A DNA stretch of 64,000 bases, taken from the NCBI GenBank assembly GCA_049889795.1, contig JBMHCS010000003.1, forward strand, positions 101,149 through 165,148, in the 5' to 3' direction. Made by a program: the position numbers and the translations under genes. The DNA comes from Candidatus Puniceispirillaceae bacterium (lineage in GTDB: Bacteria > Pseudomonadota > Alphaproteobacteria > Puniceispirillales > Puniceispirillaceae). The notes beneath the pieces are model-generated. The model did no database searches. It worked only from the letters and a program-made list of their open reading frames with translations, and was not told the origin of the DNA. Of this stretch, positions 18,464 through 23,368 are shown in pieces (the first letter of the stretch is position 1; every line of letters starts with the position of its first letter).

Positions 18464-20023
18464 TCAGCCGCTTGAACGATCCTGCTGCTCCTCCTCCTCG
18501 ATCAGCCGTTCAACTACCTTAGCAGAACACAGCACACCGGGCATCCCGGCACCTGGATGTGCCCCTGCGGCGGCAAAATACAGATTGGAAATATGCGGGT
18601 CGCGATTGTGATACCGGAACCAGGCAGATTGCACGAATAGCGGCGCAATCGAAAAGCCGGCCCCATGCATGGAACGATAATCATCACGGAAATCTTCCGG
18701 GGTCATCCAGAAATCGTCTGTAATCACATCGCCCAGCCCAGGCATGATGGTACGATCCAGCGCTGTCACAATCCGGTCGCGCAACGCAGGGCCTTCTGTC
18801 TTCCAGTCAACATCGCCAAGCAGATTGGGTACCGGACATAGAACGTAGAAACTGTCACAATCGTCTGGCGCAAAGCTCTTGTCGGTGGCTGTCGGACGAT
18901 GCAGATAAAGCGAAAAATCATCCGCCAGAATTTTGCGATCAAAAATGTCGGCCAGCAATTCCCGATAGCGCGGCCCCATCCAGATCGTGTGATGCGCCAC
19001 ATCGTCAAAGGTTTTGCGGGTGCCAAAAAACAGCACATACAGACCCATCGAATATTGTGTCAGAGCTTCCGGCAGCGCCTTCTTGCGCCGGCTTTCCTGC
19101 GGCATCATCTGACGATATACGGTTGGTGGATCGCCATTGCAGATCACCCTGTCAGCATCATAGCAGCGCCCGTCGACAGCAACCGCCCCGGTCACTTTTG
19201 TTCCCTGCTGGACAATATGTTCGATATCCACGCCCAGCTGTACCGATACGCCGGCACGCTCCAGCAACCGATGCAGTTCAGCCACCAACCTGCCAGTGCC
19301 TCCCATACAGAAGAACACGCCCCACTGGCGTTCCAGATAATGGATCAGCGCATAGATGGATGTTGTACTGAACGGATTGCCGCCGACAAGCAGCGGGTGG
19401 ATCGAAAAGGCCTGCCGCAGCAGCGGATGACGGATGTGGCTGTTTACAAGCCCGGTGACCGTGCGGTAGCTGCGAAGGCGCAGCAAGGCCGGGATCTGCC
19501 CGAGCATGCTGGTGAAGCGGGTAAATGGCTTGTCGGCCAGCTTTTCAAAACCGACCTCGAAAATCGCCTTGGACGTCCTCAGCAGCCGGGCGTACCCCTT
19601 GATATCCTGTTCATCGAAACGCGCGATTTCGGCATTGGTATCTTCAATACCGGGCCGATAGTCAAATTGCTGCCCGTCGTCGAAATGGAAACGGTACCAG
19701 GGGTCGAGCGGCCGAAATTCGAGATAATCCTCGCGGCGCTCGCCAAACAGCTCGAACAGCTCGTCAAACAGAAATGGCGCGGTAATCACCGTCGGGCCGG
19801 CATCATGGCGAAAACCACCCCGTTCAAAGACCTGCGCACGCCCACCAATGGCCTGCAGCCTGTCGACGAGCGTGACCGAATAGCCGCGCGCCCGCATCCG
19901 CAGGGCGGCAGCAATACCGCCAAACCCGGCGCCGATCACAAGAACATCGCTTATTTGCGGCGCGGTTGAGGCTCCGGCCGGTTCGGCAGGGGCTGATGAT
20001 TTGACGATGGGAGCCGCAGTCAT
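18464..20023 (-). CDS. crtI: Phytoene desaturase
   Basis: GAGFGGIAAA, GGRA, DAGPTVIT, HPLLVGGNPF, HHTI, HPGAGMPGVL.SA. Confidence 0.95.
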   Translation of the reverse strand: MTAAPIVKSSAPAEPAGASTAPQISDVLVIGAGFGGIAAALRMRARGYSVTLVDRLQAIGGRAQVFERGGFRHDAGPTVITAPFLFDELFELFGERREDYLEFRPLDPWYRFHFDDGQQFDYRPGIEDTNAEIARFDEQDIKGYARLLRTSKAIFEVGFEKLADKPFTRFTSMLGQIPALLRLRSYRTVTGLVNSHIRHPLLRQAFSIHPLLVGGNPFSTTSIYALIHYLERQWGVFFCMGGTGRLVAELHRLLERAGVSVQLGVDIEHIVQQGTKVTGAVAVDGRCYDADRVICNGDPPTVYRQMMPQESRRKKALPEALTQYSMGLYVLFFGTRKTFDDVAHHTIWMGPRYRELLADIFDRKILADDFSLYLHRPTATDKSFAPDDCDSFYVLCPVPNLLGDVDWKTEGPALRDRIVTALDRTIMPGLGDVITDDFWMTPEDFRDDYRSMHGAGFSIAPLFVQSAWFRYHNRDPHISNLYFAAAGAHPGAGMPGVLCSAKVVERLIEEEEQQDRSSG

Positions 20024-20033
20024 TGTCTGGCGG

Positions 20034-21059
20034 TTATGTCTGATTCAGTGAAGCAACAGACTTCACGCATACCTGCTGTAGCAACTGCTGTATAGGGGTA
20101 ATGACGGCACTCAGTTCAGCTGGCAATGTGTCGGCGCATTCACCCGCGCGCGCCATCAACGCATTCATCCGTCTTGCCGCTTCGCCGGCAGCAGATGATT
20201 CCAGAATGGCTGCCAGCCAGACATCAAAACCGGCGTCATCGCCGCTTGCATACCACGCATCAAAGGCAGCACGCCTGTCATCATCCAGCGATGCGCGGAA
20301 CAGGACAACAACGCCGTTGGGCGCGCGGCGGCGCATGTCAGACCCGCAGGTATTTGCACCGTCCCCACCGCTGAAATTCAGAATATCATTGCCAATCTGA
20401 TAGGCATTGCCGAGCGCCCGGAAACACTGACCGATGGTCGTTGCCGAATTGCCGTGCAACGCCATGGTTGCAACACCTTCCAGTGGCGCGGTCAGCAAAG
20501 GGGCTGTCTTATCGCCGGCGCCCTGCAGGTAGGCATCCCAGCTGGCAACCGGGCTGATATCGAATTCGCGTGCCTCACCAAGGGTGGTTGTTTTCATATG
20601 GGTCGCCAGAATTTTCACCAGCATGGGTGTCTGCGAGCGTTGCGCCGCCTCTGCTGCAAGTTCGAACGCCAATGCGATCAGCCAGTCACCAAGCGTCAGG
20701 GCAACATCGCGGCCAAATATCGACCAGACGGCGGGGCGCCCACGCCGCAGGCGGTCACCATCACAAATATCATCATGGATCAGCGAGGCATTATGCAGAA
20801 CCTCTATCGCCGCAGCCCAGTGCATTGCTGCTGCACGGTCAACCTTGAGCGCATCAGCAGCCCGTAGCGCCATCTTGGCCCGCAGCATCTTTCCAGGTGC
20901 CATAAAATGATGGGCCGCAGCCTCGGAAAGTGGCTGGCCCGCGGCCGGCATACGCTCAGCTATGAAGACATGGATGGCTTCGGATGTTGACCGTGAAATC
21001 GCGCCGCCTGCGCCTGCATCTGTCAGGATATTCTTGGCTGGTTTGGACAGGTCAGTCAT
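20034..21059 (-). CDS. crtE: Geranylgeranyl diphosphate synthase
   Basis: GKMLR, E.LHNASLIHDDICDGD..RRGRP, LGD.L, KTA, LG.AYQI.ND. Confidence 0.9.
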   Translation of the reverse strand: MTDLSKPAKNILTDAGAGGAISRSTSEAIHVFIAERMPAAGQPLSEAAAHHFMAPGKMLRAKMALRAADALKVDRAAAMHWAAAIEVLHNASLIHDDICDGDRLRRGRPAVWSIFGRDVALTLGDWLIALAFELAAEAAQRSQTPMLVKILATHMKTTTLGEAREFDISPVASWDAYLQGAGDKTAPLLTAPLEGVATMALHGNSATTIGQCFRALGNAYQIGNDILNFSGGDGANTCGSDMRRRAPNGVVVLFRASLDDDRRAAFDAWYASGDDAGFDVWLAAILESSAAGEAARRMNALMARAGECADTLPAELSAVITPIQQLLQQVCVKSVASLNQT

Positions 21060-21159: not shown

Positions 21160-21948
21160 TTAGGCTTTTGCTTCGGTCTCGGTGACCGCAACGTTCCAGA
21201 TGATCACACCGAACGCAATTTTGTTCAGCACGTCAGCCAGGTTGTAGATCACGTTGAGCGAGTTTGCCGAGCTGGCTGGGTCGCCAGTCGCCAGGTAACC
21301 ATAGAAATAGCCAAGCGGATAAATCGCCCAGCCAATGGTCACAATCCAGCGCATGGTTGAGAAGGCCGACTTGACCGACTCAGGAGCCTGCTCTGCAGAA
21401 AGCTTACCGGCTTCACCTGCAAAAATTTCATACAGGATGTAGAACCAGCCTACCATACCGATGACAAAGCCGAGCCATACGTTCATATAGCCCACCTCAC
21501 CGGCATAACCGCCGACCAGCATGATCAGCGTACCGACGGTCAGACGCCAGAAGATGCCAGACGATACGTTGGCAATGGCGCGCAGGATCAGGTAGAACTC
21601 GATCATCAGCAGCGGAACTGTGATGAGCCAGTCGATGTAACGATACACGGTTGGTGTGTCGCCGGTGTTTACCCATACGTCACGCATGTAGAAATAGTGT
21701 ACAGCAGCAACCAAAGTCACCAGACCGGACACAGTAAGCGAAGTCTTCCACTTACCTTCCACGCGCTGTGTCTCAATGAAGAAGAACGCGGTTGAAGCAA
21801 CCAGCGCCATTGAGATCAACCAGAACGAAATACCGACGAAATCATCACTCGCCAGGTTATCGCCTGCAGCAAACGCAACAGTGGGTGTGATGGCCAACGC
21901 CGCCGTAATCAGCGCCGTTTTCGCGGCCTTACCCGTGAAGAGTTTCAT
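21160..21948 (-). CDS. Proteorhodopsin, DTE proton pump, green-tuned (Leu105)
   Basis: Signal peptide; AAVHY (His75), RYIDWLITVPLLMIEF (D97, T101, L105, E108), GWAIYP.GY, YNLADVLNK (D227, K231 Schiff base). Confidence 0.98.
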   Translation of the reverse strand: MKLFTGKAAKTALITAALAITPTVAFAAGDNLASDDFVGISFWLISMALVASTAFFFIETQRVEGKWKTSLTVSGLVTLVAAVHYFYMRDVWVNTGDTPTVYRYIDWLITVPLLMIEFYLILRAIANVSSGIFWRLTVGTLIMLVGGYAGEVGYMNVWLGFVIGMVGWFYILYEIFAGEAGKLSAEQAPESVKSAFSTMRWIVTIGWAIYPLGYFYGYLATGDPASSANSLNVIYNLADVLNKIAFGVIIWNVAVTETEAKA

Positions 21949-22053
21949 TTTGTACCTCCGTTAACGAAAAGGTACGGACGGACCTTGCCGCGATCGCGAC
22001 ATTATGACCCACCCGTAGCGCCCCTACCGTATCTACGGAAACAGTGAGGGCGC
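21949..22053 (-). promoter_or_regulatory. Structured 5' leader of proteorhodopsin with an SD-sequestering hairpin
   Basis: Three consecutive stems on the sense strand; the last, GUACCUUUUCGUUAACGGAGGUAC, pairs with the GGAGG SD. Confidence 0.55.
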
Positions 22054-22546
22054 AATTACTAACCGGCCCGTTTTCAGCCCCAAACCAGATAAGGCTATTT
22101 TATTGTTTATTTACAGATATTTAATACATGAAAAACAGTTTTGACGAATTCGCAACATTCCCCCTGAAATTTGTGCAAAAAATTACTAACACACTCTATT
22201 TATTTGATTTTTATGAATTTCGACAAAATGGCCTATTTTCGCCAGTTCGCATAGATTATGCGCCAAATGGGGCGTAAATGGCCCTGCAAATCGACCGCAG
22301 CCCGGCAGATTGGCCTGCCGGCGTTCTTGCATGGTTCCATGCAATCCGAACGCGACCTTCGGGCTGTGATTGCCGCAGATGGCCGGCTTTGCTAGCCTGA
22401 CGGCGTGGATCGGAAAAGCGGCAGCGCGCGGTTCGTCGTTCCGGAAACAGTGCGCTGTGCCGGAAAATGCAAAATCACAGGAATGCCACAGTTTTGTCAT
22501 CTCAGCCTGATACCGGCAATAATAACCTCAACCACGCAAGGATGGT

Positions 22547-23368
22547 GTGATGCCGTCAACACAAGCCGCGCACCCCATTTTTTCATTCGCCGATGGCGAG
22601 ATGGGACCGATTTCAAATGCCTTGATCAGAGGCATAGAGCGCATCAGCGGCCAGCCTAGGATTCGCAAACTCTATTTTGACTATGTCGATGAGCAGCGTC
22701 CCTTTGACAGCTTTTGGTCAGATGCGCTGGAACGGCTGAACATCTCGGTTGACCTGCATCGTGATTTTGGCGCTGAAATTCCAAGCAGTGGGCCTACCTT
22801 GATTGTTGCCAACCATCCCTATGGTGTTGTCGACGGCTTGGTTCTATGTGCCCTCGTGGCGCAGGTCAGGTCCGATTACAAAATCATCACCCACCGCGTA
22901 TTGCGCCAGGCACCCGCAACAATGGATAAAATTCTGCCGGTTGATTTCGATGAAACGGAAGCAGCCCTGCAGACCAACATCCAGACGCGCAAGGACGCGG
23001 CCGCATATTTGCGTCAGGGCGGTGCCGTGATCATCTTTCCCGCAGGGGCGATCTCGCTGGCACCAAATTTGATTGGCGATGCCTATGACAAAGAATGGAA
23101 GACCTATGCCGGCAAACTGGCAACGCAGCCGGGAACAACAACGGTTCCATTCCTGTTTGATGGACAGAATTCGGTTCTATTCCAAGCGGCACGCAGGATC
23201 AGTCTGACGCTGGCCTATTCCCTTATGTTCCGTGAAATCTGCAAACTGATGGGAACGACTGTCTCGCTTACAATGCGTAAACCGTTACATGCAGACGCGC
23301 TGGCGCAGCTGTCAGACCGCAAGGTGATCATCGACCATCTGCGTGACCATACTTATGGTTTGCTCTGA
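22547..23368 (+). CDS. Lysophospholipid/glycerolipid acyltransferase (PlsC-like)
   Basis: VANHPYGVVDG (HxxxxD), IIFPAG, F.GQNS.LFQ. Confidence 0.85.
   Translation: MMPSTQAAHPIFSFADGEMGPISNALIRGIERISGQPRIRKLYFDYVDEQRPFDSFWSDALERLNISVDLHRDFGAEIPSSGPTLIVANHPYGVVDGLVLCALVAQVRSDYKIITHRVLRQAPATMDKILPVDFDETEAALQTNIQTRKDAAAYLRQGGAVIIFPAGAISLAPNLIGDAYDKEWKTYAGKLATQPGTTTVPFLFDGQNSVLFQAARRISLTLAYSLMFREICKLMGTTVSLTMRKPLHADALAQLSDRKVIIDHLRDHTYGLL

Follow-up and report, generated by a model that had tools for sequence, protein, structure and literature searches.

Comparison of the sequence upstream of the proteorhodopsin (opsin) gene among SAR116 (Puniceispirillaceae) bacteria shows a leader RNA motif whose central helix, P2, is conserved in its pairing with compensatory changes, which occurs as a single copy and which is tied to the opsin start. 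Proteorhodopsin is a light-driven proton pump, and its gene is among the most abundantly transcribed in the surface ocean; to our knowledge, the control of its expression is poorly understood except in a few cultured strains. We read the leader, with about even confidence, as a lineage-specific and probably constitutive cis-acting RNA module tuning both the life of the mRNA and its translation. The structure is absent from Rfam, and it is of a familiar kind, the structured 5' leader, rather than a demonstrated sensor. An opsin-specific leader conserved in SAR116 would provide a concrete element through which mRNA stability and translation rate could be controlled after transcription, and the motif is a candidate for listing as a new family in RNA databases.

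The opsin locus and the leaders compared

The window (the whole stretch of 64,000 nucleotides analysed) belongs to a genome assembly of 2.4 Mb that is 87.5% complete and has 57% G+C. In its list of open reading frames, the opsin coding sequence (262 amino acids) occupies positions 21160-21948 of the minus strand, with its AUG at 21948, and is followed downstream on the same strand by a crtE-like frame (20034-21059) and a crtI-like frame (18464-20023), both named by eye from their translations. The upstream neighbour is divergent and starts at 22547, which leaves about 600 nt of non-coding sequence before the opsin. Opsin homologues are present in 58 of 61 related genomes. Upstream regions were taken from 30 loci, 12 further genome regions and 25 metagenome contigs, the latter recruited via the invariant Shine-Dalgarno (SD) block alone, so that their recruitment was blind to P2. 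Together, these gave 39 distinct leaders that share the type found in the window and come from metagenomes and from three SAR116 genera, namely g1 (the window's own), g8 and g13.

Fold of the leader

The first-pass annotation had described a highly structured leader at 21949-22053 with three stems, and P1, P2 and P3 indeed sit at the coordinates and have the sequences that it gave, all three being reproduced in the MFE fold of RNAfold. On the minus strand, P1 (22018-22053) pairs GCGCCCU (22053-22047) with GGGGCGC (22024-22018) and encloses CCGU-AGAU-ACGG. P2 (21973-22017) has an outer stem of 12 bp with four G-U pairs, formed by UACGGGUGGGUC (22017-22006) and GGUCCGUCCGUA (21984-21973), which encloses an internal loop rich in A and U (AUAAU) and an inner hairpin that varies among leaders, here GUCGC-GAUC-GCGGC (21987-22000). 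P3 (21952-21975), the short hairpin predicted to sequester the SD, joins GUACCUUU and GGAGGUAC around an 8-nt loop, pairs the GGAGG (21959-21955) and has its stem end 3 nt before the AUG. Folding energy alone is weak evidence for such a structure: the sense strand between 21940 and 22060 folds at -45.1 kcal/mol (RNAfold; z -2.64, with 3 of 200 shuffles as good), P2 folded by itself gives a z of -0.85, and the MFE of the region from -60 to +20 stands at the 47th percentile of 839 gene starts, crudely called, in this genome. The predicted accessibility of the proteorhodopsin SD lies at the 4.5th percentile of these 839 starts. The antisense strand folds more weakly (-33.6, z -1.60) and does not form P2, in agreement with the earlier argument that the four G-U pairs of P2 work on the mRNA strand only. 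Judged from the alignments, it is the comparison with relatives alone that sets P2 apart from chance; P1 gains nothing from it, and P3 gains conservation without covariation.

P2, a helix conserved in its pairing

The check for conservation and covariation in relatives that had been proposed with the first-pass annotation came out in favour of P2, at about 86% pairing (86.7% of the P2 cells in 22 leaders, and 91% in the outer stem) and with compensatory double changes (six pairs changed on both sides), a result matched by 0 of 500 shuffles; when the partner strand was slid by 1-3 columns, pairing in the same 22 leaders fell to 32-48%. Alignment of all 39 leaders to the model gave P2 a covariation score that, again, 0 of 500 shuffles reached. 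RNAalifold on a plain MAFFT alignment missed P2 because the arms of the g8 and g13 leaders are bulged and were misaligned, and because the covariance-model alignment also places these rows imperfectly, the g8 set was counted separately. Its six near-identical leaders vary in the basal stem solely by swaps that keep the pairing, namely double changes from U-A to C-G and from G-C to A-U in one leader (L068) and from U-A to C-G in another (L070). Within g1, the G-rich 5' arm is fixed, and C and U replace each other along the 3' arm (G-C to G-U, U-G to U-A); such a drift of one arm with pairing kept is what selection on RNA pairing predicts. The G-U pairs give way to G-C or A-U through changes confined to the 3' arm, as fits RNA but not duplex DNA, and a hairpin at the position of P2 appears in the folds of every orthologue from the three genera despite differing arm sequences. 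These comparisons argue that P2 is a genuine strand-specific RNA helix, kept by selection that acts on its pairing and not on its sequence.

The P2 hairpin is single and unbranched, and its inner part is variable: the inner hairpin differs in length, its loops change freely (GAUC, GAGU, GAAA, GACA), and two leaders (L013 and L055) have an A-rich loop in place of the inner hairpin. The 5' strand and the A/U-rich internal loop (CAUAAU), on the other hand, are more conserved than pairing alone demands, the loop being conserved on its 5' side only. An inner hairpin that is variable or absent argues against a binding pocket, and the riboswitch, one of the mechanisms initially put forward, finds no support in a P2 that has no junction, that lacks its inner hairpin in two leaders and whose internal loop is conserved on one side only. 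Two further readings of this part of the leader were considered. From the AUG within CAUAAUG, a 13-codon frame, MSRSRQGPSVPFR (21961-22002, minus strand), extends as far as the UAA of GUUAAC; it was rejected as a leader peptide, since neither frame nor start nor stop is kept in relatives. Complementarity between the loop and the start codon, as in a pseudoknot, is seen in g8 (CAUAAU-AUUAUG) and g13 (CAUUUU-AAAAUG), and is reduced to four of six matches in g1 with no consistent covariation.

P3 and the Shine-Dalgarno block

The SD, GGAGG (21955-21959, minus strand), lies within a block, UUUCGUUAACGGAGGUA, that is invariant in all 39 aligned leaders and includes nucleotides of the P3 loop, and positions -30 to -1 show 95% identity, compared with 65% at four-fold degenerate (neutral) sites. 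The string GTTAACGGAGG has a single occurrence in the whole 2.4-Mb genome. The predicted free energy of P3 is -7.5 kcal/mol at 37 °C and -10.3 kcal/mol at 25 °C; on its 5' side, an upstream CCUUU stretch pairs with the SD through contacts that include two U-G pairs, the corresponding arm of g8 and g13, UAUUUC, pairs in a shifted register, and an alternative register, UUUCG-UUAA-CGGAG, is possible in all leaders. Across 22 leaders, P3 is 89% paired with zero double changes; because its 3' arm is the invariant SD, covariation is impossible. The loop itself, UCGUUAAC, is invariant, which suggests sequence-specific recognition and is left unexplained by a constitutive model. A short palindrome adjoins the SD in each SAR116 clade (21961-21966 in the window, with equivalents in L018-L031); it reads GTTAAC in g1, g8, g13, g5 and g2, CGTTCTAGAACG in the sister genera and CAACGTTG in family f2, all composed of GTT/AAC half-sites.

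The first-pass annotation had presented P3 as a hairpin occluding the SD. This is upheld as a prediction for the present genome, where P3 pairs the GGAGG, and does not extend evenly to its close relatives, among which predicted occlusion varies widely: the predicted probability that the SD is unpaired ranges from 0.007 to 0.88 across the 39 orthologous leaders, so occlusion is not uniformly kept. At 25 °C, the SD is predicted to have an accessibility below 0.1 in roughly half of these leaders, whereas the values for g8 and g13 are 0.24-0.5 and several species of g1 reach 0.6-0.9. An RNA thermometer had also been suggested, and the placement of the SD in a weak hairpin with U-rich and G-U pairs is a trait of that class; the mean unpaired probability predicted for the SD of the window's leader nevertheless rises smoothly, from 0.09 at 5 °C through 0.18 at 25 °C to only 0.24 at 50 °C, and this predicted course, without sharp melting, lends a thermometer no support. 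A similar outcome was reached for the proposal that P2 and P3 compete. The two stems share GUA alone in this genome, and in the MFE folds of most relatives they abut end to end without a linker and co-exist; no conserved, mutually exclusive pairing of P2 and P3 was found in the orthologue folds, and competition as a conserved switch is therefore not supported.

Sequence and transcription upstream of P2

In contrast to P2, P1 does not behave as part of an RNA motif, as had been assumed at first: in 22 leaders it is 59.5% paired, a value equalled by 344 of 500 column shuffles. Its stretch has an identity of 0.63 between species pairs, against 0.65 at four-fold degenerate opsin sites, and hence evolves at the neutral rate. 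The stem is a strain-level feature of the window strain and its nearest relative only, and unrelated hairpins occupy the position in two sub-lineages, one formed by the window with L003 and the other comprising L038, L043 and L046. The sole fixed features of the P1 stretch are a TTGC and a (C)AATAC-like hexamer 16-17 nt downstream; in genus g1, the TTGC is invariant and the (C)AATAC stands at a fixed distance. In the window, this putative promoter-like motif overlaps P1 at 22028-22055 of the minus strand, as TTGCGC (22055-22050), 16 nt and GATACG (22033-22028), the last of which is AATACT in most relatives. By eye, a like arrangement precedes the first hairpin at a similar distance in g5 (TTGAAG-N16-AATACT) and in family f2 (TTGCC-N14-CATAAT). 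A consensus promoter scan did not call the TTGC-N16-(-10) motif, and a sigma-54 promoter at the TTGC was rejected, the GG element being absent or one position off. The P1 stretch is thus putatively promoter DNA or unconstrained leader, outside the RNA module.

Transcription of the leader was followed in public RNA runs as Logan contigs, which are fragmented by strain variation and cannot show transcript ends. One seawater metatranscriptome contig (run X3, depth 14, error-free) spans 21930-22132 on the minus strand and so covers the whole leader and runs into the coding sequence, extending 79 nt beyond P1; low-depth contigs of runs X1 and X2 cover 22068-22361 and may be DNA carry-over. The X3 contig, for which DNA carry-over is likewise possible, hints at a transcription start at or upstream of 22132, and the proximal promoter-like motif would put the RNA start 0-8 nt before P2. 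Our literature search found no relevant proteorhodopsin transcription start site.

A distal palindrome, AAAAC-T-GTTTT(TCA), lies at 22129-22142 of the minus strand, about 180 nt upstream of the AUG, and is conserved in g1, g8 and g5 leaders. It stands upstream of the opsin across the genus, about 80 nt (counted by eye) from the TTGC motif, and AAAACNGTTTT has four copies in the genome compared with 0.86 expected. It may be a site for a transcription factor or another protein acting on the opsin. In genome G000, a 14-nt identical copy of the palindrome AAAAC-N-GTTTT (AAAACTGTTTTTCA) is found on contig C15 at 176281-176293, with an amine-oxidase/DUF1365 operon on one side and, on the other, a mutarotase-like gene (names given by eye). 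A regulon defined by the palindrome was considered and dropped; the amine-oxidase/DUF1365 copy is common to the closest genome only, and the other extra copies fall in unrelated places or inside genes.

Distribution among SAR116 clades

A search of Rfam (release 15, E up to 10), which had been recommended as a check, returned no relevant match and no family, the best overlapping hit being BSR1350 at 17.3 bits against a gathering threshold of 216 (E 2.1). Among the papers searched, none describes a leader RNA motif for proteorhodopsin, in line with the first-pass annotation, which knew of none. The covariance model (R1) matched once per genome, with every match running up to the start codon of the opsin, in 18 of 21 g1 genomes, three of seven g8 genomes and the one g13 genome; its matches in g5 cover the SD block only. 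A reading of the leader as a repeat element was discarded, since it is unique in its genome both by BLAST and by the covariance model. Two genomes (G019, leader L038; G016, leader L039) carry the same P2-P3 leader and upstream blocks before opsins that are 67% identical to that of the window. A fixed leader before differing opsins suggests, on this sequence comparison, that the coding sequence may have been exchanged behind a fixed control region.

Other SAR116 clades have leaders of unrelated sequence with a similar plan, that is, a covarying 5' hairpin and pairing close to the SD. In the sister genera (L018-L023, L025, L026 and L028), the last 95 nt before the opsin AUG consist of a variable hairpin followed by a nearly invariant 45-nt block, in which GUAGGACGUUCU pairs with GGGAGUGUCCU-AU to form 12 bp over the SD and part of the start codon; this helix shows zero variation and hence no covariation. 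The Puniceispirillum-like genus g5 (L016 and L033-L035) has its own leader, with a hairpin CGUGAAC/GUUUGCG that bears a compensatory change from A-U to G-C in L034, and then a weak hairpin, GAUCA...UGAUC, whose loop also contains CAUAAU.

Discussion

We give about an even chance to a module that is lineage-specific and probably constitutive. P2 would form a stable barrier shielding a very highly expressed opsin mRNA from 5'-end-dependent attack or scanning by RNase E. It may stack coaxially on P3, which begins where P2 ends, and P3 would damp and set the rate of 30S binding. The conservation of one P2 strand and of the GUUAAC loop, which such a module leaves unexplained, keeps alive a second reading, in which P3 is a true switch and access to the SD is set by temperature or by a trans factor, an RNA-binding protein or a small RNA, that would recognise the single-sided P2 sequence GGGUC-AUAAU-GUCGC or the invariant GUUAAC loop. 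In agreement with a switch, the proteorhodopsin SD is predicted to be among the 5% least accessible of its genome, the UUUCGUUAACGGAGGUA block is invariant down to its nucleotides in the P3 loop, P2 has its 5' strand and internal loop conserved in all three genera, an invariant helix of 12 bp covers the SD in the sister clade, and the U-rich pairing of the SD resembles that of fourU thermometers. Yet covariation in P3 is neither possible nor seen, predicted occlusion spans 0.007 to 0.88 among close relatives, predicted opening of the SD goes from 0.09 at 5 °C to no more than 0.24 at 50 °C, most folds hold P2 and P3 together with no conserved alternative pairing found, and no Rfam family matches, which together make a switch unlikely. 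That P2-P3 and the invariant UUUCGUUAACGGAGGUA serve a dedicated trans factor as its docking site, or sense a physical cue, is a shade less likely again; if true, it would mean post-transcriptional on/off control of proteorhodopsin in SAR116, with the SD-covering leaders of other clades as variants of one principle.

Lower probabilities attach to the readings in which P2 acts on transcription or not at all. P2 is a long GC-rich hairpin directly followed, in all three genera, by a conserved U-rich tract (CCUUUUCGUU; UAUUUCGUU in g8 and g13, where the U-run begins at the first base past the stem), and might work as a leaky intrinsic terminator, restricting how far transcription reads through into the opsin operon. 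We consider such attenuation improbable, as a scan for terminators was negative on this strand, the stem and the Us are two Cs apart in this genome, and a hand estimate by the d'Aubenton-Carafa rule was negative for g1 and borderline for g8; in addition, the sequence upstream evolves neutrally and yielded no conserved antiterminator, the RNA contig reads through into the coding sequence and other SAR116 clades carry an A-run after their hairpin. The inverted repeat could instead work as DNA, as an operator, with the CATAAT inside P2 as the -10 box of a real promoter. CATAAT-like hexamers do recur in g1, g8, g5 and f2 leaders, that of f2 with a TTGCC 14 nt upstream, and the 5' strand of P2 is conserved in sequence; the four departures from a perfect DNA palindrome are, on the other hand, all compatible with G-U pairing, on the sense strand only, and compensatory changes keep the arms paired, which neither operator nor promoter would need. 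There is also no conserved -35 at 17 nt upstream of CATAAT, and a start 7 nt past it would cut the covarying helices, so that we hold this DNA-level function to be slightly more improbable than attenuation. Finally, chance folding of a functionless GC-rich intergenic stretch would be in line with the z of -0.85 for P2 alone, with a regional MFE that is ordinary for the genome and with a P1 that behaves as chance; conservation with compensatory change in three genera, together with an unvarying place in front of the opsin, disfavours it, and we hold it to be very improbable.

The leader of the sister genera (L018-L028) is a parallel in plan. It occupies the same position before an orthologous opsin and likewise begins with a 5' hairpin that varies and covaries, after which further pairing covers the SD, whereas its sequence is unrelated, its invariant 12-bp SD helix reaches the start codon, and its first hairpin is trailed by an A-run where the window's type has a U-run. 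With fourU and ROSE thermometers, the leader shares a short hairpin immediately before the AUG in which a U-rich stretch (CCUUUU) binds the SD by G-U and A-U pairs; unlike them, it is without sharp predicted melting, its occlusion varies among orthologues, no Rfam thermometer matches it, and the opsin is neither a heat-shock nor a virulence gene. The 5' untranslated hairpins of the ompA type in Escherichia coli are 5'-proximal stem-loops that protect mRNA from RNase E, and such stabilisers were reportedly described by Belasco and colleagues. The leader has no sequence relation to them, and a start near 22132 would leave P2 about 115 nt from the 5' end, and hence no 5'-terminal stabiliser. As in the ompA type, P2 is a stable hairpin kept by structure and not by sequence, through compensatory change, in the mRNA of a highly expressed membrane protein, whose leader also has a single-stranded segment rich in A and U and, next to the SD, another small hairpin.
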